A DNA stretch of 43,532 nt from a virus (taxonomy: Duplodnaviria; Heunggongvirae; Uroviricota; Caudoviricetes), in the IMG/VR virus record IMGVR_UViG_3300024268_000012; one strand, 5' to 3'. Both the position numbers and the translations under genes were made by a program. The number at the start of each line of letters is the position of its first letter. The stretch's first letter is position 1. Shown here piece after piece: positions 23,703 through 43,532 of this stretch. The notes below the pieces were generated by a model that was not told the DNA's origin, ran no database searches, and saw only the letters and a list, made by a program, of their open reading frames with translations.

Positions 23703-25673
23703 TTAAGCAACCGCCTTTGCAAGAGCTTCCCAAGTCTTGGGACCGCAAATGCCATCGACCTTAATATTTACTTTCTTCTGGAATGCGCGAACTGCATTCA
23801 CAGTTTTAGTGCCATAGTCACCATCAATACCATCTTTATTTTCGCCATAAGTACCAAGATCATATCCAAGTTTCTTCAAATTAGTTTGAAGAATTTTTAC
23901 ATAATCATTTTCAGCGCCTTTACGGATTGTTGGATATTTACTGAAATCAAGAGAAGGAGTGATTACGTTTTCATTATCATCATCAGAATCATCCTTACCT
24001 TGCGCAGCTTGAAGCTTTTTAAGAAGTTCTGCATCAACAATACCATCTGCCAAGATGCCATTATCACGTTCAAATTCTTTAACTGCAGTTGCGGTTTGAG
24101 AACCAAACTGACCATCAGCCTTATCTTCAAGTTCATATCCCAAATCCATTAAGATTTCCTGAAGTTCTTCAACATCAGCGCCAGTCATACCTTCTTTCAA
24201 AGGTAGACGCTCGCCAAGATCATAATCAGTCTTTTCGCCATCAAAAACAAGGAATGTATTCATAACATAACCATACTTGCCGTCAAAATAAGTTTTGCTC
24301 CAAGTTTCTTCACGCTCGTAAACATTAACCTTCTGGCCTTTAGGAATGCGAGCAAGAATGGACGCAGAGGTTGATTTGCCAGCACGCAAATTGAGTCTTC
24401 CAGAGACTGTAGTTACTACCGCAGTAGCAATAGGCTTAGGAGCTTCTACTTCTGGTTCTTCTGCTTTATATTCTCCAGATACGTATTTAATACCCGGAAA
24501 TTCATACCAATCAGTCCAAGGACGTTTATTTAAATCGGTAATGATAATACCCTTAGCAAACCCATAAGCTTCAACAACTTTACCATTACCAATATAATAG
24601 CCAACATGACCATCCTTGCGCACAGCAAGCCCAGGCACTTCTGGGATAGTTGCAATCTTACCATATTTTAAACCCTTGCTCTTGGCATAAGTGAACATAC
24701 TATTTGCAGATTTATCAGGGCAGTTATTTCCATATTTACTCTTGAAGGTCTTATCAGTACCAATAGATTCGATAACACCTTCACCGCCATAAGTCCAATT
24801 GTATCCTTTACCAAGTCCCACACAATCAGCAGAAACCATCTTCTTAGAAATGTGAGATTTATATGTAGCAGTACGATCACTACCATAATGAGAAGGATAT
24901 TGATTAGTTTTACTCTTTAAAGTAGAAGTTGTACATTTATATACACAAGTGCCATACCAATATGGCTGGCCAACCATTGCTTTCAAAAATTCTACAAAAT
25001 GTAAGTTAGTATATTTTTCATATTGAGACATAACATTCCCTCCTTGGGGTTTACCTTCCGTCGTCCCGACGATAGGTTCGCTCGGTTGGGTTACCACTAC
25101 CTCGCCATAATTCTTGCGAATTTCTGTACCTGGATAGTAGAATGCCAAAATTTCATCATATTTAACACCAATAGAAGCTGCATACTTAGCGCCGGTTTGA
25201 CTCATACCAACACCATGTCCATTCTTCTTGCCCTATGAGACGGCATAATCCCACGGGTCTTCTTGGGCGATTAAATATGCTCGCTTTCCGCCCCACTTTT
25301 CCTCACTTGAGTAGGTGCGGCCGCCGTTCATAGCACTGTAATGTGCATTTGTAACGATCTTGTTATTATAATAAAGAACTTCACCCTTCGTCTCTTCAAC
25401 TGCTTGATGTGCTCTTGCATATGAATTAGAGAAGCGTGAAGCGCGGAATGCCTAATCTGTTGAGGATTTGTCGCTAATAGATCCTTTACTCTAATAGCGA
25501 TATAAAGCGAAAGTGCGGGCCGCAACAGCTTGAGCTTTACCTGCTTCAAGAGCAGCATTACCTACTTCTGCGGGAACCACACCTTTTAGATATTCTTCAA
25601 TATCAATTTCAATTTCATCTTTACCATAATAGTCAAGATTTTCGGAGCGAGTAAGTTTTACTTTAATTAGCAT
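23703..25673 (-). CDS. Endolysin: SpoIID/LytB-like domain + Cys/His-containing central domain + two PG_binding_1 repeats; read through 3 TAG
   Basis: ORFs 25491..25673 and 23703..25205 are in the same frame (offset 468 nt). The span between them is open except for TAG at ~25491, ~25452 and ~25232. The N-terminus 'EEYLKGVVPAEVGNAALEAGKAQAVAARTFALY...GHGVGMSQTGAKYAA' is a SpoIID-type domain. The C-terminus has two 'DGxFGxxTxxAVxxFQ' peptidoglycan-binding repeats. RBS aaggagg. Confidence 0.8.
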
Positions 25674-25687
25674 GCTTATTCCTCCTT

Positions 25688-25722
25688 AAAAAAAGAAGAG
25701 GGTTGTTTATTACAACCCTCTT
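25688..25722 (-). terminator. Terminator after the rSAM operon (- strand)
   Basis: Stem GAGGGTTGT/ACAACCCTC with short loop. A-run on + (= T-run on -) at 25688-25695. Lies between gene 25727 and the endolysin start 25673. Confidence 0.6.
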
Positions 25723-25726
25723 TACA

Positions 25727-26041
25727 TTATTCAACAATCTTCTTTAAGCGAAGATTTACTTCACGACGGTCAATTTCTTCATTCATGGTATCAAACAAAG
25801 TATCAATCTTGAAATTATCAACCACATCGTACAAGAGCTCACCGTTCTTATCAAAAACATGTACAGCCTTAATAGTGATACCAACATAAGACTTAATATC
25901 TTCGATGGTGTCTGCAAGACTAGCTGCTGTGTTATCAAGGTAGCAGTTAAAATCATTGCCGAGCTCGCCATTTTCAATATGGCTATAATTTACGCTACGA
26001 ACGTCATAACGTGTTGCAGAATCGTTGAAACTAATAAACAT
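25727..26041 (-). CDS. Hypothetical protein (last gene of the rSAM operon)
   Basis: 104-aa ORF, 16 nt after the 226-aa gene, followed by a - strand terminator hairpin. Confidence 0.5.
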   Translation of the reverse strand: MFISFNDSATRYDVRSVNYSHIENGELGNDFNCYLDNTAASLADTIEDIKSYVGITIKAVHVFDKNGELLYDVVDNFKIDTLFDTMNEEIDRREVNLRLKKIVE

Positions 26042-26057
26042 GTTTTATTCTCTCCTT

Positions 26058-26738
26058 TTAGTTTGCTGGTGGAGGTGGTGGAGGCGGGGGAGGATTACAT
26101 CCACACTCCTCGGGTTTACTTCCATTCCAATCAGAGTTTTTTGGCCCTTCCTCAGGCTTTACTAAACCAAGCGCAGTTAAATAAGTTTGAGAAAGGCGAA
26201 GAGAAGCAGGACGAGACTGACGCCAAGATCTGAGTTCTTTAACAATGCTAGAAGAAGCTTGCATTAATTCAAGATAACCAGCGCCCATTTGTGCCAATGT
26301 ATATGTTGGCGCAAGAGTGTCTTGAATCAAACCAATGCGCTGGGCAATAGTCTGACTACGTTCATCTTCTGGACCATTAGACAATTTAAAGTCTAAATAG
26401 TTACCAAATACAGAGCAATATTGATGAACAATCGCGCACCAGGCACTCATAAAATCATTCCAGGGAAGCTTATCCTCAGTAAGAATAAGAGTTGGAAATT
26501 CATGTTCAATACGAATGAACATGTCTAAAGTGTCCTGAGAAATTGTAAATGCACCATCGTCCTCTCCCGGTTCCCAAGCTGTGATGGCATCAATTTGCTC
26601 CAATACTCTAATCATAATTAATGAAAGTTGCGGCTGAATGGCTGTTAAAATACGACCAATAGGACCCAAAGTATCAATTTCTTTCATCACATGATAGCGG
26701 GCCTCGCCATAAGAAAAATTACGAATTTCAGTTAACAT
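26058..26738 (-). CDS. Hypothetical protein with C-terminal Cys-Gly-Cys + Pro9 tail, coupled to the rSAM enzyme
   Basis: 226 aa. The start overlaps the stop of the upstream rSAM gene by 11 nt. The C-terminus is '...KPEECGCNPPPPPPPPPAN'. Confidence 0.55.
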   Translation of the reverse strand: MLTEIRNFSYGEARYHVMKEIDTLGPIGRILTAIQPQLSLIMIRVLEQIDAITAWEPGEDDGAFTISQDTLDMFIRIEHEFPTLILTEDKLPWNDFMSAWCAIVHQYCSVFGNYLDFKLSNGPEDERSQTIAQRIGLIQDTLAPTYTLAQMGAGYLELMQASSSIVKELRSWRQSRPASLRLSQTYLTALGLVKPEEGPKNSDWNGSKPEECGCNPPPPPPPPPAN

Positions 26739-28116
26739 TTAACTCCGTTACCTCCTCAAGATATTTGAATTGCACTTTCTTTTCTTCAGACAAATCTCTC
26801 CAAACTACACTCCACACCCCATGTTCTTGTAGCCATTTCATTTCAGTATAAATCATAGCATGAGCTACTGCACATACAGTAGGAATTGGAGTAATTAAAT
26901 TACGAGTGCATTCATATTGAGCACCAAGACAGGTGCCAGTACATAATTCATTAATAGGACATTGCGCACAATGCGGCAAAGATGCTTTATGCATAGAATA
27001 TGTTGAAATTAACAATTCCGGATTGATGCATTCAAATTTCAAAATTTCTTTTTCATCAGGCACCAATTTACCATAATACATATCTTCATATCCTGTGCGG
27101 TGACATGGATACATCATTAAGTCACTTACACGTAATGTAAATTGGCTTTGAATACCGCAGGTAAGACCACGTCCACAAGTTGTTAAAGGCTGACTAAACA
27201 TATTAAAACCATTTGCTTTAACTAACCAGCCTGCCATAGCATATGGATCTTTATTAATTTTATTTTCCCATACCCAATCAAGAACAAATCTCATAAATTT
27301 ACACAAAGACTGAACTTGATCATAATTCCATTCTTCATTGCGGACATGCAATAAATACAGGCTCTCCCATGGGATATTGTGTTTTTCCATCATTTCTTGG
27401 AACCACAAGAAATTTTGAGGCCATGCATCAATATTTCTACTATATACCATTGGATGCAAGCCACCATGAATCATATGAGAAAATTGAAATGCACGATCAT
27501 AGTACTCGTCATCTCGCACACCACCACCCAAATCCACATCTAGATCATGTAGATAAGGACGATTGTCTTCCATATATTTTCCATCAAAACTCGCACTAAG
27601 ACCTAGAGTAATACCTATACTTTCGAATTTAGCATGAAGTTCTTTTACTCTTGCAGTTGCTTCTTCAGAACACACAAAAGTAAAATTAGTAGGAATTACA
27701 ATTTCAATTGGACGATATAAAGGATCTAAATCCTTAAAATGTTCATAAATAGTTTCTAATACTTTATATCCAACTTCTTGAGCTAATAATTCACCAGAGA
27801 AAATTTCAATGTTAGCGTTCCAATCATTATGAGTGTACCATTGTAAAATAGTTTTTAGATTTTCAATAGTACGCTCTTCGTTGAAACAATCTTCACTAAA
27901 AATCTTTTTGCGATGACGATGTAAATAACAATATCTACAACCTAAATTGCAACGCGGTGAAATAATTAACTCAATATTTTTCATTTTCTGATCTCTTGGG
28001 GTATCAATAGAGAAATCATCATAAAAATATTTCTCAATTACCCAAGCGCCCAATTCATGATTTTCTTTTTGATATTGAGACAAACCAGTATCATTTACAT
28101 TGCAATGCTCGGCCAT
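26728..28116 (-). CDS. Radical SAM enzyme with C-terminal SPASM-like Cys cluster (peptide/protein-modifying type)
   Basis: 'ISPRCNLGCRYCYL' CxxxCxxC. The C-terminal region has 'CHRTG...C...CAQCPINELCTGTCLGAQYEC', typical of SPASM auxiliary Fe-S clusters. 462 aa. Confidence 0.8.
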   Translation of the reverse strand: MAEHCNVNDTGLSQYQKENHELGAWVIEKYFYDDFSIDTPRDQKMKNIELIISPRCNLGCRYCYLHRHRKKIFSEDCFNEERTIENLKTILQWYTHNDWNANIEIFSGELLAQEVGYKVLETIYEHFKDLDPLYRPIEIVIPTNFTFVCSEEATARVKELHAKFESIGITLGLSASFDGKYMEDNRPYLHDLDVDLGGGVRDDEYYDRAFQFSHMIHGGLHPMVYSRNIDAWPQNFLWFQEMMEKHNIPWESLYLLHVRNEEWNYDQVQSLCKFMRFVLDWVWENKINKDPYAMAGWLVKANGFNMFSQPLTTCGRGLTCGIQSQFTLRVSDLMMYPCHRTGYEDMYYGKLVPDEKEILKFECINPELLISTYSMHKASLPHCAQCPINELCTGTCLGAQYECTRNLITPIPTVCAVAHAMIYTEMKWLQEHGVWSVVWRDLSEEKKVQFKYLEEVTELNVN

Positions 28117-29507
28117 GGTTTCATCGCTCCTCTATTTACTAAAATTTTATAATATCGCATCATTTCTTCCACAGCACCATTGCCTAATAAACGCAAATAA
28201 CTGCAAGGTACAATAGAAGGATTAGTTGTATAGTCTTCCTCAACGCCAATATGACAATATAATCCACAAGTCATCATAAACATTAATAAACGATCATCTT
28301 CATTATATGCATATTTACTGTTGATTTGTCCAGCGCAAGCCATTGTTACAGCCATTTGATCAAAGAAATATTTTCTAGACATAATATCGGCATGGAAAGA
28401 CATAGAACCATAAGTGCGTTTCATCCAAACCTTATCATTAGTATTCATATTACATCCACTTTGCATTGCATGCTTAGTCTTCATTTTTTCATCAAGAGCT
28501 GCATTACGACAGAGACGATTACAAGTATAAATATTTCCTTCATGATCAATAGTAATATTATTCTTACTAGCGGAACAAGAATAAGAATTTTCTTGTGTCG
28601 CAATAGGATTGCCAGCTTCTGCTTGGAAAAATACTTCAGGTCCATTAAATAATTGACCAAAAAGAGGGCGACCATCATAGCAAGGTTTATCTTGTACATT
28701 TACTCTCGGTAAAAAGCTAAGCCATTTTGCAAATGTCTCACCATCTTCTTGAGTATAATAGCCTGGGTCAACCAAAGTTGGGCAACCCGCAATTTGTAAA
28801 CTAATATTTTTTTTACCTTCAATTAATTTATCGCATTCAACTTGTAAATCATTGAAGAATTTATAATACCAGTTAAATGAATCAATTCCTCTCTCATTCA
28901 TAATTTTCATATAACTAACATCTAATGTAGCTTTAGTATTAATTACAAGAGAGAAATATTCCATATCTGCAGGACAACGAGTTAAAATTTCTTTCATAGT
29001 TTTAATTGTGCTCGCAGTCGCTCCAGGATGACGAGAATCATCATTAAATTCAGGTGGACCATCTAAAGACATTTGAAGATTAAAAGTGATTTTACGTTTG
29101 TGGTGAGTTGCATAAACCATCATTGGCAAGAAAAAATCTTCATAAATGCGATCGCCCAAAAGAGCATTAGTAGAAAACATTACATCTTTAGCATTTGGAT
29201 AATAGTCAAATAATGCTTCAAATGTTGCTCGCCAGTACTGACTATTAATTGTAGGTTCTGCGCCCCACAAACTTACATTTTCAATAGCATCACGGATGCC
29301 TGCGGTGACACGTTTAACATTTTCTACAAAAGTTCCATCTTCAAGTGCTTGACGAATATCTCTATTATAAGAAGCCATGCACTTTTTTTCTTTTTCAATA
29401 TAACAATATTTACATGCCATATTGCAATCTGATGACCAGTGTAGGCTGACGCTGGCTATATTAGCCAGCGCTTCGCCTAAATAATCAAGAGAAGGAATTT
29501 GTTTCAT
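28095..29507 (-). CDS. Radical SAM enzyme with C-terminal SPASM-like Cys cluster (second, paralogous maturase)
   Basis: 'SSDCNMACKYCYI' CxxxCxxC. Later 'CSASKNNITIDHEGNIYTCNRLC...GCNMN...CAGQ' and 'CGLYC' cysteines. 470 aa. Overlaps the downstream rSAM gene by 22 nt. RBS gaggag. Confidence 0.8.
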   Translation of the reverse strand: MKQIPSLDYLGEALANIASVSLHWSSDCNMACKYCYIEKEKKCMASYNRDIRQALEDGTFVENVKRVTAGIRDAIENVSLWGAEPTINSQYWRATFEALFDYYPNAKDVMFSTNALLGDRIYEDFFLPMMVYATHHKRKITFNLQMSLDGPPEFNDDSRHPGATASTIKTMKEILTRCPADMEYFSLVINTKATLDVSYMKIMNERGIDSFNWYYKFFNDLQVECDKLIEGKKNISLQIAGCPTLVDPGYYTQEDGETFAKWLSFLPRVNVQDKPCYDGRPLFGQLFNGPEVFFQAEAGNPIATQENSYSCSASKNNITIDHEGNIYTCNRLCRNAALDEKMKTKHAMQSGCNMNTNDKVWMKRTYGSMSFHADIMSRKYFFDQMAVTMACAGQINSKYAYNEDDRLLMFMMTCGLYCHIGVEEDYTTNPSIVPCSYLRLLGNGAVEEMMRYYKILVNRGAMKPWPSIAM

Positions 29508-29528
29508 ATCTCCGTTTTCTCCTCTCGC

Positions 29529-31022
29529 TTAATTCGAGTAATTTCTTGAATAATAATTACTAGTATAATTACCAGTTTTATTGCCAGAATTATATGTAGA
29601 ATAGTTACCAGACTTATAAGTGGTATGATAACCTGTCTTATAGCTAGTATAATCCGCGGTATCATAACTATGATTGGTGCCATTATGAGAACTCTTGGCG
29701 CCACTGTCATTAGAAGAATAATAACTTCCATGATGGGAGGTATAATCCGCGCTATCATAGCTATAATTACTCGTTTTATAAGTTGTATAATGCGTTTTTG
29801 CGCTTGCATTATAACCACCATGATTACTTGTGTAATCTGCACTATCGTGAGAATATTTTCCACCATAGTGAGTAGTATAATTTGCGCCTTTTGCAGATGC
29901 ATTATAAGTAGCAAAATTGCTGCCATTATATCCGGCATAATGAGTGTACTTTCCACTGTTATATCCAGTATAATCTCCACCATTAGCAGATGCGTAATAT
30001 GAGCCTTTGTGCGTAGCATAGTTTGTGCTATGATAGGCATAATTACCACCATTGTGGACGGAATAATGTGCATTTGCTGTTGTATAATATCCGCCAAAAT
30101 TATTAGTATTATAAGAACTTAAGTGACCAACTTTTTCACTCTAATAATGTGTACTATTATGACCAGATTTATGTGTAATATAATATGTTTCATAATGAGC
30201 AGTATTTTGCCCAGTATAATGATTAACATAATAAGAAGTTTTTACTGTGGCATTATAATTAGTATAGTTTGCAGTATCATAAGTTACATAATGAGTAGTA
30301 TAATATGTGGCATTATTTGAAGTATTGTAGCCTGCATAATGGCTATATTTTTGCGCACCATTATGTGTATCAAATTCAGTACTAAATTGATTACCAAAAT
30401 GATCTGGACAATGTGAAGTATTATAAATTTGATAGTGCGTAGTATAATAATTAGTATAATACGCTTTATGGTTACTACTATAATCCGCAGACTTATGAAG
30501 ACGATTGCCCGTATAATAAGTTCCATGGAACTAATAATGAGCACTCTTATACGTTACATAATTTGTTGTATTATGTTCATAATTTCCACCAAAATAAGAA
30601 TAATAATGAGTACCATTATGAGTAGTATAATAATCTGCATAATGATTCGTATAATAACTTGCATTATGACCATATCGATGACTGTTAAAATACTCAGTAT
30701 AATAAGAATTATGCCAAGCTGTCCAGTTATTAATATCATATCCGGTATAATAATTTACTAAATGCCCTGTATAATAAGCATCATTATATCCAGATTTATG
30801 ACCTGATTTATAAGATGAAAGATGCCCGTTATAATATGTACCTTTTTCACCATTGTGATGGGTAGCATAATGTCCACTATAATGTGAACTTAAATGTCCG
30901 CTCAAGTGCCCTGAATAATATGCAGGGCAATGAGCAGCTTCTTGGGCCTAAATTGCAGTTAATGGATTATTTAAGTCAGAAGGAATAATTTTATTTCCTT
31001 TGACTGCTGTTGAAGTCGCCAT
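29529..31022 (-). CDS. Giant Tyr/His/Ser/Thr/Asn/Gly repeat protein B (putative rSAM substrate), read through ~3 TAG
   Basis: ATG at 31022 with RBS ggaggaa. The Y/H-rich frame (e.g. ORF 30531..30905 'GHLSSHYSGHYATHHNGEKGTYYNGHLSSYKSGH...') continues on both sides across TAG codons to TAA at ~29529, 20 nt before the rSAM start. Length is 1494 nt, divisible by 3. ORFs in other frames here are low-complexity artefacts. Confidence 0.65.
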
Positions 31023-31044
31023 TGTGGATTATTCCTCCTTTTTA

Positions 31045-32661
31045 TTAAGTTACAGTAACATTATGCGATTTATTACCAGCACGATAAGCGGTATAATTAG
31101 AAGTATTATAAGTGCCATAATTAGCAGTATAATAACCTGTCTTATAATTACTATGGTTACCACTATTATAACCACTCCAGTGAGAATTACGAGCAGCATT
31201 TTGACCACTATTATAAGAGCTATCATGTCCACTCTTATTACCTGAATAATGACCACTATTATATCCGCTCCAGTGAGAACGCTGTGCAGTTAAATTAGAG
31301 TTATTATATGTTGCATAGTTACCGCTTAAATGACTTGTATAATAACCACTATTATAACCACTCCAATGATTATTATAAGTGGAATAATTTGAACCATTAT
31401 GACTGGTGTAATGACCACTTAAATGTCCTGTATAATTACCATTATTTTCAGAGCTTCTATGAGAAGTATATACAGTCTTATTATGATTAGTGTAATGCGT
31501 AGCATAATAACCACTTAAATGCCCTGTATAATCACCTGCATTGTGAGATACATAATGAGCTCTATAACCAGTTTGATATCCCATATTATGACTAGAATAT
31601 CGTCCTGTATAATGAGTAGTATAATTATTACTATTATAAGTTGAATAATGATTATTTTTTCCTGTGTATTGAGCAGTATAATTAGAGCTTAAATAGCCAG
31701 AATTGTATCCAGTATAATTAGCTGCATCACGACTAGTGTATTGAGTACCATTATGCCCTGAATAATGCGTTTTTTGTCCTGCTTTATTTGTACTATTATA
31801 GGTCGAATAATGAGTTGTATAATTAGTAGTTTTTGCTCCACTATTATAGGTGGAATAATGAGAGCTTCTGTGAGCATAATCATATGTTTCAAAATGACTA
31901 TCATAAGCAACAGCACGGTGAGATTTTGCTCCAATATGATAAGTGGTATATTGAGTACCGTAATAGCCAGTATAATGACTATTTTGATTAGTATAATGAC
32001 TATAATAATAATTATTATAATTAGTACTCTTATAAGAACTATCATGTGAACTATAATAACCACTATAATATTCTGCATTATGACTTTCAAATTCTGCCGC
32101 TCTATGATAAAAATGACTTTTTTCAGTAGTATTGCGAGTTGTATAATGAGTTGCATAATAAGTAGCATTTCTACCGCTGTAATGTGGAGCAAAATACGTA
32201 TTATAATGAGCTTCACGATGAGCAGAATAATAAATACCACATGCTGCCCAGTTATCAAAATATTGCCAATTACTATGATGAGATCCATAGAAATCGGAAT
32301 TATGAGTTGTATAATAGCTACTATAATGACTACTCTTATAACTACTTTCTCTGCCGCTATAATATGTTGCATTATATGAAGTATATTGTGTTGCATAAAC
32401 CGTAGATTTATGCGCATTTAAATATCCTGCATTATAAGCGGCACAACCGTAATTGATAGAACCAGCTTGGCTATCAATAACATCCGATAATTCTTTAGGC
32501 GAATTATAATTTAATTTAGAATTATAAACTGCAATAGGATCATGTTGCCAATTATATTTGGCTAAACCCAATTTATCAGTTCTAAAATTATCAATTCGAT
32601 TTCGAACTAATAAATAATCAGAATATGCAGTTTTCTAACCCGTTGAAACTGGTACCGCCAT
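31045..32661 (-). CDS. Giant Tyr/His/Ser/Thr/Asn/Gly repeat protein A (putative rSAM substrate), one TAG at codon 9
   Basis: ATG at 32661 with RBS ggaggg. 'MAVPVSTG[TAG]KTAYSDYLLVRNRIDNFRTDK' continues into the ORF-track 508-aa ORF 31045..32571. About 538 aa, >85% S/T/N/G/Y/H. Repeats such as 'HWSGYNSGYYTSHLSGNYATYNNSN'. Confidence 0.7.
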
Positions 32662-32690
32662 TCGTTCGCCCTCCTTTATCTCTATAAAAT

Positions 32691-32720
32691 ATTATAACAA
32701 AAATTTTTATCTATGTCAAA
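32691..32720 (-). promoter_or_regulatory. Consensus sigma70-type promoter (TTGACA-N17-TGTTATAAT) for the Y/H-repeat + rSAM operon
   Basis: On the - strand: TTGACA (revcomp of 32715-32720), 17-nt spacer, TTTTGTTATAAT with TATAAT = revcomp of 32691-32696. Immediately 3' of a terminator hairpin and ~30 nt upstream of ATG 32661. Confidence 0.65.
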
Positions 32721-32753
32721 AAAAAATATGGCCGCAATTAAGCGGCCATATTT
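32715..32753 (-). terminator. Terminator after the tail-fibre gene (- strand), immediately upstream of the rSAM-operon promoter
   Basis: 9-bp stem TATGGCCGC/GCGGCCATA with AATTA loop (32727-32750). The + strand A9 run (32718-32726) gives a T-run on the - strand. Confidence 0.65.
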
Positions 32754-37920: not shown

Positions 37921-39690
37921 TTATTCTTCGTATTCAACAGTAACTTTTCCGTTACGATCTTTCTTTAAAGTAACCTTCTTAGATTCGGTAAGTTCACCGC
38001 TAACAACCATATTAGTACCATCAAATACCTTATGATAAATCTTACATCTGTAGCTATAAGAGTTATAGGTTGCATTTGCTGGCTGTTCCAAAACAGGAGT
38101 AATGGTGAGAGTGGTGTCAGATAGATTGCTGACACCAGTGGCTTTTTCTGTAACCTTGTCACAAGTCCAGCTAATTACCCATTCTTCTGGATGGATTGCA
38201 GATTTACTATCTAATGGGAAAATAGGCTCTGCAGTAATCTTAGAATCATTATAAGTCAACTTAACTTCAGTTGGCTTATCTGGCCAAGCGCGCAAAACGC
38301 AAGGGGTGCCAACTGCCAATGGCTCAGACTTTGTATTGTTGCGATAATTAATTGCATGGCAAGAAACAATACCTTCTGTATCCTTTGGAGGAATATAAGT
38401 ATTTCCGTCTACGCCATCAGTTACTTCTACATCGTCAAGAGTCCAAGTATACTTCACATCTGCAGGCTTATTGTAGCCAGTGACATCAAAGATTAACTTA
38501 TTGGTATAAGTAGTTTGTCCTTCTTCTGCGGATGGAGTCTCACCCAAGGAATACATTTTAATTGGGAACTTACTAATATCACCATGCTTCAATTCTGCGG
38601 CAGCAGGAATTGTTGCGGTCTTAGTGTTAATCCAACGAGTACCGGAAGCTGCAGTCTTATTACCAATTTGTGCGAAATAAGTACCAGCAGTGGTAACTAC
38701 ATATTCCTCATCTTCTTCTACAACATTCTCAAGAACGTCATAAAGTTGTTCTTTACCACGATACCAGCGATATACAACTTCACCGCCCTGATCCTTGTTT
38801 GGAGATTCGCCTTTAACAGCTAAACGAAGAATACCATCTGGGTACAATAGATTACCATCTTCATCCTTTAATTCGGCATAATCTTCATAACCCTCAACAT
38901 CAGTACTAAGTTCATATTCAACGGTATTATCCAAATCAAGAACAATAGTAGGTGCAGCACCATCAAGAGAGTTAATTACACCAGAGTATACTGGACGAGT
39001 ACGAATCAAGTTCTCCAAGTCAGTATCTAATTCGGCACCAACCACATCAAGATCAAGAGTACCCTTAATTGCGCAAGAGCTCTTCTGAGTAGCAACACTA
39101 TAAGTGATTGTTGCAGGATCGGTACCATAGTCAAGAGCGTAGAAACGAAGAGCAAATTCGATAGAGCCGCTCTGCTCAGTCATCTCATTAGTAATAACCC
39201 AACCAAGAAGAACAAAGTCATGAGACTCGGTCTCACCAGTCTCAGCGTTAATTACAACTTCCTCTGAATAAACGTCAGTTAAAATAACAGGAGAGTTGCC
39301 CTGCTTTACCTTCTTGTTATTTGCATTGTACCACTGTACCACGCATAGAGTTTCATTTAAGTCCATTGCATCAAACCAACGAGGGACTTTAAAGAAAATA
39401 ATTTCAGCATTGGTATCGCCCTTAACACCAACACCAACATTTTTGAATTCGTTGGGTACGGTAATTGTACGGGCATCCATGTCAACTTCAAAAGGTGGCT
39501 CCTCTAATGGGAGACGATAAAACTTATTACTTAAGTTCTTACCATGCTCTCTTGCAACCTGTAAGGCGTTAAAATAAGTAGCTAATTCACCCTCTTGAAG
39601 AGAAACACCATATTGAGCTACATCAATCTGTAAATCATCAAAGAGTTTCTTATATTCTTCCTTGAATTTCTTAGTAATTACTACTTTCAT
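37921..39690 (-). CDS. Structural (tail/baseplate) protein
   Basis: 589-aa ORF with RBS gagaaagggg. The N-terminal domain is shared with the downstream 197-aa paralog. It sits in the tail module. Confidence 0.6.
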   Translation of the reverse strand: MKVVITKKFKEEYKKLFDDLQIDVAQYGVSLQEGELATYFNALQVAREHGKNLSNKFYRLPLEEPPFEVDMDARTITVPNEFKNVGVGVKGDTNAEIIFFKVPRWFDAMDLNETLCVVQWYNANNKKVKQGNSPVILTDVYSEEVVINAETGETESHDFVLLGWVITNEMTEQSGSIEFALRFYALDYGTDPATITYSVATQKSSCAIKGTLDLDVVGAELDTDLENLIRTRPVYSGVINSLDGAAPTIVLDLDNTVEYELSTDVEGYEDYAELKDEDGNLLYPDGILRLAVKGESPNKDQGGEVVYRWYRGKEQLYDVLENVVEEDEEYVVTTAGTYFAQIGNKTAASGTRWINTKTATIPAAAELKHGDISKFPIKMYSLGETPSAEEGQTTYTNKLIFDVTGYNKPADVKYTWTLDDVEVTDGVDGNTYIPPKDTEGIVSCHAINYRNNTKSEPLAVGTPCVLRAWPDKPTEVKLTYNDSKITAEPIFPLDSKSAIHPEEWVISWTCDKVTEKATGVSNLSDTTLTITPVLEQPANATYNSYSYRCKIYHKVFDGTNMVVSGELTESKKVTLKKDRNGKVTVEYEE

Positions 39691-39695
39691 TAAGA

Positions 39696-40163
39696 TTATT
39701 CCCCTTTCTCAATTTTAACCAATTGTTGGAATAATTCAACAATTTCAGTGTAATAGCTTTGAACTTGAGCACCAAGAGCCTGAGTTAAATAAATCTAACG
39801 AGTAATTTCAAAATTAGTCGCTTTTAAATCAATAGTAAACTCAGAAGACAACCGATAATCTGATGTCCCTGGAGCCAAAGTCATAAGCTGAAGAGTCGTT
39901 TTTCCAGAAATTAAACGGACCGGTTGCCGCAAAGACACTCTGTAAATGTTGTAAGCTGTATCTGCGGCTGGCTGCTTAAATTCCAACTCAACTACATCCC
40001 GCATCCCCTTATCATCTGTCATAATTAAAAAGACTTGATCAAGAATTCTCGGATTCTTATTTTTAGATACATGAAATTCAATATCAACCAAATCAGTTCC
40101 TGAAGCAAAACCTCTTGCAGGATTTAATTTGTCAAGTCTATCAAAATACATAATTGCGGCCAT
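39696..40163 (-). CDS. Hypothetical structural-module protein, read through 1 TAG
   Basis: ATG at ~40163 with RBS ggaggataac. ORF-track 39795..40217 ends in TAG at 39795. The frame continues 33 codons to TAA at ~39696, 5 nt before the next gene's RBS/start. Confidence 0.5.
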
Positions 40164-40478: not shown

Positions 40479-43400
40479 TTAAGCTTGCATAATTTGGACA
40501 AGATTTGGATTAGCTGTAATATGAAGATCATAGTTAGTAATCCAATCATCTACATAGGAAAGAATTTCATCATATGAAGTACTGTTATTATCGTAAGTAA
40601 CAACAAAACTACTTAAAGATAAATATTCTTGAGAGCTTGCACCAAACATGGCATTTGTTGACAACCAAGTTAAAGCGTTTGCATTAATTGGTCTTTGAGC
40701 GGTGCCAAAATTAATAATAGACCAACCACAGTTTTGGAATGTCTTATTACCATAAGCAGCACCAAAATCTTCAATACCATCATTGTTAGTGTCTCCAAGA
40801 CTGTACTCATTATAAGGAACAGTAAGAACAACACAATCCTTATTTCGGCATGCATTTGCAAATGCACTATTGCCAAAATAGCTAACATTGTTAGTATTGT
40901 CAACCACTAAATTAGTACAATTTCTGAAGCAGAAAGTTCCAATAGTAGTTAGTGAGTCAGGGAAATCAACATGAACTAAGCTGGTTGCTTTATCAAATGC
41001 AAAATCATTAAATTTATAAATCTTACTTAAATTCTCTGCATTTTCTTGACAACCTAAGAAGAACACAGCGTACAGATCAGTATTTTGACACATACCATTA
41101 GATACAGAGCCTGTTGCAGAAGTACCTGCAGCAATTTCTAAGATCGGCCATTCGACACCTTGTTCATCAAATACGGTAATTGGGAAACAAACTTTTCCAC
41201 CAATGCCATAAGTAGGATCAAGACCAACAATAGCATAATTGCCAAGAACGGCGTCTGTTTTATAAGTAATATTTAAATACTGCTGATCAATTATATTGTC
41301 ATAAACACTACTTTCCATGTAAACCGCATAGAAGTTCATGTCGCTACCTGCTAAAATACGATTTAAATCGGTGGTGTCAGTAGAAGAAGTAAGAGAAGTA
41401 TGCCAACCAATAAATTTATAACAAGAAGTCAAAGCCAAAGAGGTGCTATCTCTTTGAGGAATTCTAGTAGGAGTAATAATTGGCTTACCAGCAGGAGTTT
41501 CAATTTCTTCAAACAAAGAGCCATCATAATTATAAAAGCTCATAGTATAACCATGCACTTTATATACTGCAACAACAGTTACGCGTCCACCATCAATAGC
41601 AGATAAGACGTGAGTATTTAATTCATTAGTTGCATAAAGTGTAACTTTATCATTATCGGTAATTACGGAATGTGCCGCTCTAAAATCAAATGTGCCATCT
41701 TCAATTGCCCAACCAACAAAGTCATAATGCAATCTAGAAGGTTCTTCTCCTTCGTAAACTACTGGGGACTCAGCATATCCATAAGGATACTTTAACCATC
41801 CAAGTGTCTTTTGAACACCTTCTGCATTATATTCAACAAAATGAACAGAATAAGCAGGATTTACTTTGTCACCAGTAATTTCAAGATCTGGATAAAGTGC
41901 ATTATAACGTTTCCACAAAGTATATTCGTCTAATGCATCTCCCTCTTCCTGATTGTTCACGTGCATACGACCAGTTAAGCCTGGAAGAATTTTAGTATTT
42001 GGTAAAAGTTCATTATAAGTTAAGAAAGAGCGGTAACGATAAGTATCAGTTTCCACAGTTGCGGTTTTATCCTCATACATATCTAAGAAAGCTGTTACAA
42101 TATCAAGATTTTTAATGACGTTTGTATCAAAAGCATCATCAAAAGTATAAATTACACCATCATTAAGTTTATTGATCCAGCCTTCCTCATAATAACCAGT
42201 AGCTCCGTTAGGATCATGGTATACTTCGTAAGTGGTTTGATTTTTTAATTCATAATACTTTGTTGCACGATCGAAAGATGTACCAATTTCAACTAATTTA
42301 TATGGAGACCATTCCACATCGGTAAAGTCACACTTTAAAATAGGTGTGGTATTTCCATCAGTAATAATGCCATTGTGTTTAGCTTCTTTTACTTTATATA
42401 AGTAATCTAACAAACGATAAGAATCAATACCCATTTTACTTCTGTCTAATACAAATGTCTCAATATTACAAGTTGTATTAGCATTAGGAGTAGTGGTATA
42501 TTTATCTGTTAAATTCTTAATATATAAACCAGTTGGAGTATTATCAATGGTTGGAGCTGTTTCTACAATACCCCTTAATTCAAGAGGTTGTTTCAAAACA
42601 AAGGAGGTAATTGTTTCTGGCAAGTACAAGGTCTTTAACAAGTTACCTTCAGTAAACTCGACAGAACTTAATTGTGTACCTGTTGCCATAAAAGTATTAA
42701 TTTTTTCAGCACCAGTTAATTGAAGAGAACCAGCCAACTTAGTTAAATTAGATAGGTCCATATATGTCAAAAGTCCTTTTGGACTTGTAGCAGTGATAGC
42801 CAAAGCATCAATAAATTTATCTGTGATACCATCATTGCGATAGCCATCTATCAAAGAACCAAGTGTGAAAGTACGCAAACGAATTGCTTGAGAATAGTCA
42901 ATTTCATTAAGGTACTTGTCACTTAAGTTGCCAAGATCCGCGATATATTCTGGACCGCGAATATAAGCCAACTGTTGAGACAATGGAACGCCATCGTCTA
43001 AGCGGTTTTTAATAGAAGATGGTGGGTCAATAAGAACAGGATCGTCTTGACCGGCAACATAAGGCTTAGGCGTGGTAGCAGTTTCATCATATACTACAGA
43101 TAGATACTGAGATAAGTATCCATGTAGATTGAATGATGCACTTGCCTGCAAACCTTCTACTAAGTTACCTTCTTCATCTTTAGTATCATCAGAAGTACGA
43201 GCAAGGTCGTTTGCATTATAACGCAATTTAATTTGCTTCTTAATAAATTCAGGATTATAAGAACCACCTAACCACTGAGAGTCAAGATAATTCAAACGAT
43301 TGCGGAAGAATGCTTGACGATTTAAAGTTCTATCACCTTGCAAGCAGTAGAAATAACCTTCAGTTTGAGAAATAGTTCCTTCTTGATCGGTATATCCTGT

Positions 43401-43532
43401 AGTTGCAGGAGAGATATATTTATAATCAGCGTCAATGTTCTTCATAATTTCGCTCCACTTGTCAGAACCATTGGTATTATAATGTTCATTAAGTGTATCG
43501 AGTTCAATCGCACCTTCATTGCGTAAGCCGCG
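40479..43532 (-). CDS. Large structural/adhesin-like protein with C-terminal BspA-type leucine-rich repeats (5' end beyond window)
   Basis: The 988-aa ORF is open upstream to the window edge (no stop in frame through 43532). The C-terminal region has LRR_5/BspA-like 'IGTFCFRNCTNLV...FGNSAFANACRN...FQNCGW' repeats. Genuine TAA stop at 40479. Confidence 0.7.
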   Translation of the reverse strand, partial: RGLRNEGAIELDTLNEHYNTNGSDKWSEIMKNIDADYKYISPATTGYTDQEGTISQTEGYFYCLQGDRTLNRQAFFRNRLNYLDSQWLGGSYNPEFIKKQIKLRYNANDLARTSDDTKDEEGNLVEGLQASASFNLHGYLSQYLSVVYDETATTPKPYVAGQDDPVLIDPPSSIKNRLDDGVPLSQQLAYIRGPEYIADLGNLSDKYLNEIDYSQAIRLRTFTLGSLIDGYRNDGITDKFIDALAITATSPKGLLTYMDLSNLTKLAGSLQLTGAEKINTFMATGTQLSSVEFTEGNLLKTLYLPETITSFVLKQPLELRGIVETAPTIDNTPTGLYIKNLTDKYTTTPNANTTCNIETFVLDRSKMGIDSYRLLDYLYKVKEAKHNGIITDGNTTPILKCDFTDVEWSPYKLVEIGTSFDRATKYYELKNQTTYEVYHDPNGATGYYEEGWINKLNDGVIYTFDDAFDTNVIKNLDIVTAFLDMYEDKTATVETDTYRYRSFLTYNELLPNTKILPGLTGRMHVNNQEEGDALDEYTLWKRYNALYPDLEITGDKVNPAYSVHFVEYNAEGVQKTLGWLKYPYGYAESPVVYEGEEPSRLHYDFVGWAIEDGTFDFRAAHSVITDNDKVTLYATNELNTHVLSAIDGGRVTVVAVYKVHGYTMSFYNYDGSLFEEIETPAGKPIITPTRIPQRDSTSLALTSCYKFIGWHTSLTSSTDTTDLNRILAGSDMNFYAVYMESSVYDNIIDQQYLNITYKTDAVLGNYAIVGLDPTYGIGGKVCFPITVFDEQGVEWPILEIAAGTSATGSVSNGMCQNTDLYAVFFLGCQENAENLSKIYKFNDFAFDKATSLVHVDFPDSLTTIGTFCFRNCTNLVVDNTNNVSYFGNSAFANACRNKDCVVLTVPYNEYSLGDTNNDGIEDFGAAYGNKTFQNCGWSIINFGTAQRPINANALTWLSTNAMFGASSQEYLSLSSFVVTYDNNSTSYDEILSYVDDWITNYDLHITANPNLVQIMQA

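Follow-up and report, generated by a model that had tools for sequence, protein, structure and literature searches.

A phage operon pairing two radical-SAM enzymes with two long tetrad-repeat proteins: a candidate protein-maturation cassette

What do two enzymes of the radical S-adenosylmethionine (rSAM) type act on when they are encoded in a phage operon directly behind two long, highly polar repeat proteins? This question is raised by a viral DNA sequence of 43,532 nucleotides (IMG/VR record IMGVR_UViG_3300024268_000012, the window in the following), in which a six-gene operon on the minus strand at positions 25696-32753 forms a discrete transcription unit of about 7 kb. The analysis leans towards a late-expressed, phage-borne cassette for protein maturation that resembles the systems producing peptides made on the ribosome and modified after translation (RiPPs). 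The two repeat proteins, A and B, are likely the substrates of the two enzymes, rSAM1 and rSAM2. For the modification itself, a cross-link is close to evenly balanced, with the scale tipping slightly to the other side, and an aromatic-to-C-beta cyclophane in particular is doubtful. The operon comprises, in order of transcription:

32724..32753, minus strand: terminator-like hairpin with a 12-bp stem (6 GC pairs), then a T-run; ends the upstream tail-fiber unit
32691..32719, minus strand: operon promoter TTGACA-17-TATAAT with an extended -10 TG; 12/12 sigma-70 matches
31045..32661, minus strand: repeat protein A, 538 aa; ATG start, Shine-Dalgarno sequence, leader and tetrad core
29529..31019, minus strand: repeat protein B, 496 aa; leader and tetrad core
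28095..29507, minus strand: rSAM1, 470 aa; CxxxCxxC, WGAEPT, AlphaFold2 (AF2) model
26728..28116, minus strand: rSAM2, 462 aa; CxxxCxxC and seven-Cys SPASM signature
26058..26738, minus strand: accessory protein 1, 226 aa; predicted to be all-helical
25727..26041, minus strand: accessory protein 2, 104 aa; confined to the clade of the window
25696..25722, minus strand: terminator-like hairpin closing the operon

A preliminary description of this DNA had placed the operon between two minus-strand terminators with a promoter of its own, and had counted six coupled genes with overlaps of 22 nt and 11 nt; all of this is borne out, with the hairpins at 32753..32724 and 25722..25696. The promoter, located directly after the upstream hairpin, is the sole perfect sigma-70-type site within 8.5 kb. 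Shine-Dalgarno sequences and ATG starts are present, and the start codon of A lies seven bases downstream of AAAGGAGGG. The GC content of the operon is low (0.30-0.36 vs. about 0.39-0.42).

Both repeat proteins consist of a leader-like N-terminus and a periodic core. The leader of A is about 72 aa long and ends in ...INYGC, followed by a core of about 465 aa; the leader of B is about 30 aa long and ends in ...AAHCP. Composition and periodicity were computed on 467-aa cores. Y accounts for 18-20 %, H for 9-10 %, S+T+N for 37-39 % and I+L+V+M+F for about 5 % of the residues, in agreement with the earlier view of these proteins as nearly free of hydrophobic residues. The reported recurrence of aromatic residues is likewise found, though not at a spacing of 3-4 residues: the spacing is exactly four, with an autocorrelation of 1.6x at lags 4, 8, 12 and 16 and of 0.2x at lags 2, 6 and 10. 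The tetrad pattern is [H/Y/N]-[Y/N/K]-[S/T/A]-[G/T/S], with 115 tetrads in A and 117 in B, and a four-state phase model detects 11 and 10 phase slips, respectively. The tetrad profile is H 32, Y 30 and N 15 % at the first position, Y 39, N 21 and K 12 % at the second, S 30, T 25, A 13 and G 9 % at the third, and G 27, T 23, S 22 and A 11 % at the fourth.

The aromatic-x-S/T/N arrangement noted earlier exceeds the level of shuffled sequences, since [YHWF]-x-[STN] occurs 87 and 83 times compared to about 54 times in shuffles (z = 6-7). H-x-[S/T] triads number 26 in A and 19 in B, 17 and 9 of which stand in an [STG]-H-x-[ST]-[STG] context, and Y-x-[S/T] triads number 51 and 50. Aromatic-first tetrads carry a residue other than Gly at +2 in 71 of 75 cases (A) and 67 of 77 cases (B). 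Each protein has two Cys, one or two of them within the core. The H-C-P motif of the leader/core junction recurs in the middle of B (residues 203-205, window 30405-30413, ...YNTSHCPDHFGN...), which suggests that two B-type modules were fused or duplicated to give B, or that HCP itself is a functional site.

No Pfam, NCBIfam or PHROGs family was found for A and B, and no peptidoglycan-binding domain is detectable with Pfam. Their N-termini are polar and lack a hydrophobic h-region, so that no signal peptide is seen by inspection (a predictor was not run). At the DNA level, Tandem Repeats Finder reports only short, diverged arrays of 12 and 24 nt; the repeats are therefore old, and a recent tandem DNA duplication was rejected.

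In the standard genetic code, the reading frames of both repeat proteins are broken. A contains one in-frame TAG (codon 9) and B contains three (30950, 30533 and 30143). In-frame TAGs are also present in the neighboring endolysin gene (three) and in a 1446-codon tail-fiber open reading frame (ORF; four). Examples besides those in B are found at 25493, 25454, 25235, 32637, 33244, 33772, 35338, 37138 and 39797. They are limited to minus-strand late genes (endolysin/lysis, cassette and tail), the plus-strand replication module has none, and almost all genes of the window end in TAA. TAG in homologous enzymes of other contigs coincides with columns that are otherwise invariant Gln, and Gln is by far the commonest residue aligned to TAG (107 of about 350). 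On the basis of these alignments, TAG is read as Gln and the cassette as recoded like the late genes. Its dependence on TAG suppression, together with the proximity of lysis genes, points to late expression. The window has no tRNA gene and hence no suppressor tRNA. In a related locus on a 275-kb contig (L003:244-9176; related loci are numbered with the prefix L), an array of 24 tRNAs lies directly upstream of the cassette and contains a tRNA with the anticodon CTA (annotated as tRNA-Pyl by ARAGORN), which is likely the TAG suppressor of that lineage.

Read with this code, the repeat proteins of the window were compared to those of locus L106, the enzymes of which are 91-94 % identical. Between the two loci, A and B share 82 % identity and are almost free of indels, at a dS of about 1.0-1.2 and a dN/dS of 0.12 (A) and 0.11 (B). 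Of the Tyr sites, 82 of 91 (A) and 82 of 92 (B) are kept, and substitutions occur mainly among Ala, Ser, Thr and Gly. These values indicate that A and B are translated and under purifying selection. A diversity-generating-retroelement target was rejected, by inspection only, because NAY codons and small residues interchange under purifying selection and the changes are not adenine-directed. In L108, where the enzymes are 81-82 % identical, the counterparts of A (41 % identity) and B (38 % identity) are about 100 residues shorter. Slowly evolving enzymes next to a fast-evolving target of variable length are what one would expect if the targets are leader/core precursors or proteins that interact with the host.

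Most of the weight is carried by the related loci. A word-indexed search found 73 homologue clusters of rSAM1, all metagenomic; the sole cluster with a named source, P0069, carries the generic JGI label 'sulfatase maturation enzyme AslB'. Scanning 1.84 billion representatives in full with HMMER yielded 438 rSAM1 clusters (50 % identity) at E <= 1e-30. Loci were gathered by exact protein, by an rSAM1 profile (IMG/VR and genomes) and by a reciprocal rSAM2 profile (IMG/VR); the hidden Markov model (HMM) census comprises 51 loci, including some near-duplicates. All examined loci of the rSAM1 family are located on phage contigs or on a few contigs of metagenome-assembled genomes (MAGs). The related contigs, many of them from IMG/VR, are 16-275 kb in size and typically encode tail-fiber genes upstream (with an ...AVWNDYAEYR... 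C-terminus) and endolysin/holin genes downstream of the cassette. Full-length matches in genomes are restricted to MAGs with at most 27 % identity. One of them is a Neglectibacter contig, on which the cassette adjoins a holin-like gene and a GH25-like lysin gene (by inspection). tblastn searches of 50,697 deposited phage genomes with rSAM1 and protein B gave no match.

Upstream of rSAM1, one or two polar low-complexity ORFs with leader and core anatomy are nearly always present. The pairing of the enzymes with repeat proteins, which the preliminary description had derived from the window, is thus kept in essentially every related locus, regardless of whether the search is seeded with rSAM1 or rSAM2. 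A-type leaders comprise 65-110 aa and B-type leaders 30-40 aa. The A-type consensus in the better-conserved clades is M-G-F-x-W-T...G..I.A.D.NE-I-K.N-I-D..Y...W.ELPV..GD.I..AD-F/Y-QELR...DYA.D..NYC. B-type leaders resemble the second half of A-type leaders and have H-C-P at their end. In both types, an invariant Cys closes the leader and the polar core follows; leader conservation extends down to about 25 % enzyme identity. The leader of A in the window aligns with A-type leaders elsewhere, and that of B with B-type leaders.

The cores, in turn, range from about 30 to about 500 aa. For B, total lengths run from 66 aa (L006) through 95-110 aa (L008, L010 and L011), 244 aa (L001) and 496 aa (window) to 568 aa (L005); for A, from 137-165 aa (L003, L006 and L008) through 269 aa (L001) to 538 aa (window). 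Because relatives possess leader-bearing versions of 66-165 aa, the role of A and B as enzyme substrates is strongly supported. A conserved leader and a hypervariable core beside a maturase, the general hallmark of RiPPs, are found here.

Cores remain periodic, with a clade-dependent composition. Tetrads of the kind YDSG, YKAG, VDSN, YDSD, VKST and HNSS occur in L116, L117 and L016 (in L116 also VDSA), L017, L122 and L125 have units of 9-10 residues composed of Asn, Ser, Arg and Tyr, and the cores of L022 and L023 are rich in Cys, His, Asn and Gly, with L011 also being Cys-rich. A 255-aa protein (L019:4071-4835), whose gene lies upstream of a distant rSAM1/rSAM2 pair at a distance of about 2 kb, contains HSS/HSD/HNS runs, with His-x-Ser runs at both ends (SHDSHSSHSSHSDHSSHNSHSNH ... 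HGSHSDHSSHSDHSDHSSHSNHDSHSSHG). It is the nearest likeness within the family to the repeats of HxsA, the effector of a bacterial anti-phage system considered below.

The order of the enzyme genes is equally constant. Wherever sequence is available, rSAM2 directly follows rSAM1. Exceptions are L007 and L120, and L119 is located at a contig edge. L120 (L120:1793-7712) has the only non-adjacent pair, with rSAM1 and rSAM2 2.7 kb apart and each followed by its own ORF resembling accessory protein 1. L007 (L007:10001-11367) has a degenerate cassette between tail fiber and endolysin, which consists of a truncated 349-aa rSAM1-like gene with CxxxCxxC and a 99-aa gene. Precursors, rSAM2 and accessory protein 1 are missing, and the cassette components appear to have been lost together. 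Only in L005 (L005:6160-7074) and L008 (L008:13864-14793) does a further protein, which combines a PG_binding_1 with a Peptidase_C39_2 domain, come after the cassette, behind an acidic ORF of 39-44 aa; nothing equivalent is encoded in the window. As peptidases of the C39 type remove the leaders of bacteriocins, this protein could be a leader protease, instead of or besides a lysin.

Both enzymes contain the CxxxCxxC motif assigned to them in the preliminary description. In rSAM1, it is C28-x3-C32-x2-C35, with C28 nearly invariant and the other cluster Cys invariant, accompanied by a GGE-like WGAEPT. In rSAM2, C56-x3-C60-x2-C63 is invariant and the GGE-like motif is FSGE. The Pfam model Radical_SAM scores 32.4 bits for rSAM1 and 24.9 bits for rSAM2 (cut-off 29.5). 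Nothing beyond the cluster motif is common to the two enzymes, and an origin as recent paralogues was rejected. The SPASM-like Cys cluster, also ascribed to both, is complete in rSAM2 only. Seven further Cys of rSAM2 are invariant in 14 homologues (C320-x17-C338, C383-x2-C386-x5-C392-x3-C396 and C415). They make up the full SPASM signature C-x9-17-G-x4-C ... C-x2-C-x5-C-x3-C ... C, which stands for two auxiliary [4Fe-4S] clusters, though the score of the SPASM HMM TIGR04085 is 21.8 bits at a cut-off of 27. From this pattern, rSAM2 is predicted to be a full SPASM enzyme with two auxiliary clusters. Since just three further Cys are conserved in rSAM1 (C311-x17-C329 and C418), it is not a full SPASM protein; it is probably twitch-like or has a partial SPASM domain with one auxiliary cluster. 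A different feature is found in L011 (L011:8293-10110) and also in L012-L014, where rSAM2 has 605 aa and carries a mini-intein-like insert of about 165 aa inside the cluster motif (CNLN / CFPAGTMIRM...GVLVHN / CDYC), so that splicing would be needed to form CxxxCxxC.

To place the enzymes among known families, NCBIfam, a PDB profile search and Foldseek were used, and the nearest relatives are peptide- or protein-modifying enzymes, as the preliminary description had presumed. Almost all NCBIfam matches of both enzymes are maturases of peptides or proteins (PapB, anSME, YhhB, HxsB, SCIFF, QhpD and DynA, among others). The highest scores were obtained with PapB (49.2 and 47.9 bits vs. a cut-off of 340). 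anSME (TIGR03942; 33.9 and 24.7 bits vs. 349) is the second-best NCBIfam match of rSAM1, and SCIFF scores 25.0 bits for rSAM2 and 15.7 bits for rSAM1 (cut-off 425). The models of YhhB (rSAM2 29.7, rSAM1 24.0 bits vs. 445), AmcB (at best 22.7 bits, rSAM1, vs. 425), FxsB (rSAM2 17.5, rSAM1 15.4 bits vs. 370), GrrM (at best 16.3 bits, rSAM2, vs. 310) and XyeB (rSAM2 14.5, rSAM1 12.9 bits vs. 450) likewise remain below their cut-offs. A profile of 32 rSAM1 homologues run against the PDB matches the triceptide synthase ChlB best, along with 8vpo, anSME and CteB. The AF2 model of rSAM1 (pLDDT 90.7) folds as a barrel; in Foldseek it matches CteB, ChlB (second), anSME, DesII and EpeE best, with TM-scores of 0.37-0.58. 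Both enzymes belong to the SPASM/twitch branch that modifies peptides or proteins, and to no described family. Matches of rSAM2 that were limited to rSAM genes of the Campylobacter CP220 group (21-25 % identity) were dropped, as the one example that was opened has an unrelated context, and PADLOC matches to pVip were rejected as reaching the level of the cluster motif only.

The two remaining genes of the operon have no match in Pfam, NCBIfam or PHROG. Accessory protein 1 is modeled as an all-helical bundle (pLDDT 67, shallow alignment) without a significant fold match in the PDB. Its C-terminal motif P..(F/L).LS..YL..L is conserved, and the protein is found in about 31 of the 51 loci, down to about 23 % enzyme identity. 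Accessory protein 2 is found in the clade of the window only. Word-indexed homologue searches with the two accessory proteins returned only 1 and 5 close relatives. The C-terminus of accessory protein 1 (window 26058-26110) contains a run of at least nine prolines (...CGCNPPPPPPPPPAN); close relatives (P0077-P0079) have two poly-Pro runs and more distant homologues have none.

Taken as a maturation cassette, the operon could work as follows. The leader would bring rSAM1 and rSAM2 to A and B, and the helical accessory protein 1 may assist, as HxsD does HxsC in the bacterial HXS system (HxsA/B/C/D; Li et al., Nat Commun 2026, PMC13128918). The enzymes would then abstract hydrogen atoms along the repeats and thereby introduce many side-chain modifications. 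The best guess for each of these is a covalent link inside the [H/Y]-x-[S/T] triad, in the manner of triceptides or of HXS, at about 70 aromatic-first triads per protein. An intra-triad link is favored with modest confidence because H/Y and S/T/A are two positions apart, as in triceptide and HXS contexts. The product would be a rigid, protease-resistant polymer studded with Tyr and His, made just before lysis and either carried on the tail-fiber apparatus or released with the burst. Proximity to the tail-fiber gene, late recoding, fast diversification of the core and a 'sticky' Tyr/Ser composition fit a virion fiber or adhesin. A moron-type effector, set free or put to use at lysis, would in turn agree with the promoter and terminators of its own, the low GC content and the analogy to HXS. 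An association with the virion is accordingly a tentative proposal, held with less than even confidence. The proposal in its full form, namely protein-scale RiPPs encoded by phages of anaerobic Firmicutes, with up to about 115 rSAM-modified His/Tyr-x-Ser/Thr units per chain, produced by a two-enzyme machine as a covalently hardened virion material (fiber or adhesin) or a lysis-released substance, is put forward with considerable doubt.

Several observations weigh against the reading as a maturation cassette. In the operon of the window, no recognizable RiPP recognition element (RRE) or PqqD domain, protease or exporter was found with Pfam, NCBIfam and PHROG. The NCBIfam scores of the enzymes amount to 13-49 bits vs. 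cut-offs of 170-855 and mostly cover the N-terminal rSAM core. Distant clades have Val at the 'aromatic' position (VDSN, VKST and VDSA in L116), and other clades have Asn/Ser/Arg-rich or Cys/His-rich repeats, several with few aromatic residues. Because of these Val-containing and non-aromatic repeats, an obligatory aromatic cross-link at every tetrad is unlikely. Gly, which has no C-beta, occupies 9-17 % of the +2 positions. The positional conservation of the cores could equally be explained by a folded beta-structure that needs no modification, and the own promoter and terminators together with the lower GC content fit a moron as well as a structural module. For the cyclophane-type chemistry proposed in the preliminary description, the shape of the motif agrees, but no triceptide model comes near its cut-off and Val takes the key position in distant clades; as a universal rule, it is disfavored.

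If A and B are substrates, the enzymes may nevertheless perform another radical chemistry on them, either a processive C-alpha epimerization as by PoyD, YydG or EpeE-like enzymes, or an anSME-like oxidation of Ser/Thr. More than 100 sites per protein favor a processive, mass-neutral or simple reaction, Ser, Thr or Ala is found at the third position in about 68 % of the tetrads, and Val at tetrad position 1 in distant clades suits epimerization and not a cyclophane. The epimerase EpeE and anSME are also among the structural neighbors of rSAM1, with anSME being its second-best NCBIfam match. However, no proteusin-epimerase or YydG model is among the NCBIfam matches, the anSME motif C/S-x-P/A-x-R is absent, and the enrichment of Tyr and His with its conservation of about 90 % would be left unexplained. 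Such a reaction is therefore regarded as unlikely, though a serious alternative.

The operon might instead encode a phage analog of HXS defense that acts on the envelope or DNA, serves superinfection exclusion, or counters or mimics HXS. The architecture is the same, with two rSAM enzymes, one or more small partners and an N-terminally processed repeat effector (PMC13128918). HxsB is in the match list of rSAM2, many of the H-x-[S/T] triads (17 of 26 in A, 9 of 19 in B) stand in a context resembling the modified SHRSS, L019 has literal HSS/HSD/HNS runs, and the operon has moron-like traits (own promoter, terminators, low GC content). The HxsB score, in contrast, is 25.6 bits at a cut-off of 370, and there is no match to HxsC, HxsD or HxsA. 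A and B lack both a Pfam-detectable peptidoglycan-binding domain and a signal peptide recognizable by eye (no predictor having been applied), and their Tyr triads outnumber His triads by about 2:1. Late expression, as indicated by TAG suppression and the neighborhood of lysis genes, is poor timing for exclusion, and HXS is found to 99.7 % in Pseudomonadota, whereas the phages considered here look like phages of Firmicutes. An HXS-like effector thus appears improbable.

It is also conceivable that the enzymes and the repeat proteins are mere neighbors. A and B would then be unmodified fiber, adhesin or phase-separating proteins, and the rSAM pair would act elsewhere, e.g. on the tail fiber, a small molecule or a host target. 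A site directly after the tail-fiber gene is typical of fiber accessory genes, a conserved N-terminus with a variable C-terminus is the layout of tail fibers, the indel-free positional conservation fits a folded repeat, and an RRE domain was not found. Yet the repeat proteins accompany the enzymes from 91 % down to about 23 % enzyme identity, whichever enzyme seeds the search, and some homologues of 66-100 aa consist of leader to one half. L007 lacks precursors and rSAM2 together, and the relatives of the enzymes are maturases of peptides or proteins. Adjacency without a substrate link is considered very unlikely in light of this evidence. Finally, the notion that the repeat region is non-coding low-complexity DNA whose open frames result from biased composition, prompted by several open frames on both strands at 29.5-32.7 kb and by the TAGs that break the Y/H/S/N frame in the standard code, is effectively refuted by the low dN/dS (0.11-0.12) in this frame, the Shine-Dalgarno sequences and ATG starts, the leaders conserved across loci, the independent demonstration of TAG as Gln in the enzymes, and the Ile/Leu-rich alternative frames, which are the expected shift products of NAY/AGY codons.

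The genomic neighborhood suggests what type of phage carries the cassette. It is encoded directly after the tail-fiber gene, and lysis genes adjoin it. The endolysin has SpoIID, SH3_3 and PG_binding_1 domains. The plus strand harbors a replication module at 1-21.9 kb with Sak4, DnaB, primase, RecJ, Dda, a PolIII-alpha-type polymerase and NrdD. The nearest cultured relatives of the polymerase are Enterococcus phages of about 140 kb and SPbeta, with 38-39 % identity (SPbeta YorL 38 %). Taken together, replication module, polymerase relatives and endolysin domains point to a large phage of anaerobic Firmicutes as the probable source. Beyond the tail-fiber gene, a 596-aa protein with a weak Ig-like match is encoded at 37921-39708, and a protein of at least 1017 aa, which continues past the end of the window, is encoded at 40479-43532 and contains BspA-type leucine-rich repeats (LRR_5). 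Homologous LRR_5 giants of 2300-2400 aa are encoded ahead of the tail genes in L001 and L008; these are probably adhesins of the same tail module. A megablast search of the tail region of the window against the 50,697 deposited phage genomes gave no match.

If A and B are modified, RiPP-type rSAM chemistry would extend from short peptides to polymers of 500 residues with about 100 target sites. They would represent a new class of cross-linked viral material, by far the largest known rSAM substrate by number of sites, and a viral counterpart of bacterial HXS. The family is large (438 rSAM1 clusters), uncharacterized and, as far as sampled, virus-specific, and the recoding of TAG to Gln hides such genes from standard annotation. 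Its natural size series, in which cores from 33 to 500 residues go with the same leader and enzymes, makes the chemistry directly testable from the small members. The products are of possible interest as protease-resistant, Tyr/His-rich biomaterials or binders.

No account of a phage system of this kind turned up in full-text literature searches, in keeping with the preliminary description. Its further statement that no rSAM enzyme is known to be paired with a substrate of this size has to be toned down, since anSME, QhpD and HxsB/C act on whole proteins (for HXS, see PMC13128918), though not on about 100 tandem motifs. The nearest architectural analog of the cassette is HXS. HxsA has five His-x-Ser repeats, a signal peptide and a peptidoglycan-binding domain and is processed at its N-terminus; the modification adds 8 Da at SHRSS, and HxsD partners HxsC (PMC13128918). 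The two systems share two dissimilar adjacent rSAM genes, one or more small non-enzymatic partners and a protein-sized tandem-repeat target (a putative one in the cassette), and the S-H-x-S-S site resembles the [S/G/T]-H-x-[S/T]-[S/G/T] units of the window. They differ in HMM membership (HxsB TIGR03978 25.6 bits vs. 370; none for TIGR03977, TIGR03976 and TIGR03979) and in the repeats, with about 115 tetrads and more Tyr than His in A and B. Moreover, HXS is a chromosomal defense system, 99.7 % of which is found in Pseudomonadota (PMC13128918), whereas the cassette is phage-borne among the late genes of Firmicute-looking phages.

Triceptide maturases (XyeB, GrrM/OscB, FxsB, YhhB, HaaB, HtkB and ChlB) act on repeated aromatic-x-x motifs, including Tyr, His and F-x-S (PMC11499958). 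ChlB is the top PDB-profile match and the second structural match of rSAM1, and the cores of A and B are enriched in [H/Y]-x-[S/T]. All triceptide models, however, score 13-30 bits vs. cut-offs of 310-450. In these systems one maturase acts on few motifs in short peptides, in contrast to two enzymes and cores of up to 500 aa with a strict period of four here, and distant relatives of the cassette have Val or no aromatic residue at the key position. A strictly periodic core next to an rSAM/SPASM maturase is also known from the CXXX-repeat systems (TIGR04114/04115), which have a period of four, and from the Cys-every-fifth systems CefA/CefB; rSAM1 and rSAM2 match the respective maturase models weakly, far below the cut-off. 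The periodic residue there is Cys, whereas it is His/Tyr/Asn followed by Ser/Thr/Ala here. CXXX and Cys-every-fifth systems are bacterial and have one enzyme and shorter precursors.

anSME and QhpD act on whole proteins, as is proposed for the cassette, and differ in that one or few sites are modified. The C/S-x-P/A-x-R motif of anSME is absent from the cores of A and B, in which the only Cys-Pro is that of the HCP junction. Among structural or HMM neighbors, CteB, PapB and anSME rank at the top, with scores of 34-49 bits vs. cut-offs of 340-350. PapB, SCIFF and CteB differ with respect to the Cys-rich core, which A and B do not have; the invariant Cys of the leader/core junction could serve as a thioether partner in a PapB/CteB-like manner. 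Clusters for the modification of ribosomal peptides are, finally, also found on Firmicute phages, e.g. that of sublancin on SPbeta (survey in bioRxiv 10.1101/2020.10.01.322628). These bacteriocin clusters are located on temperate phages and comprise short peptides along with immunity and export genes, whereas the cassette is TAG-recoded, has giant polar cores and contains neither an exporter nor an immunity gene. In its mode of working, the cassette comes closest to HXS and to the repeat-target rSAM/SPASM systems (triceptides, CXXX-repeat), from which phage carriage, paired A- and B-type precursors, strict tetrads and cores expanded to about 115 units set it apart.

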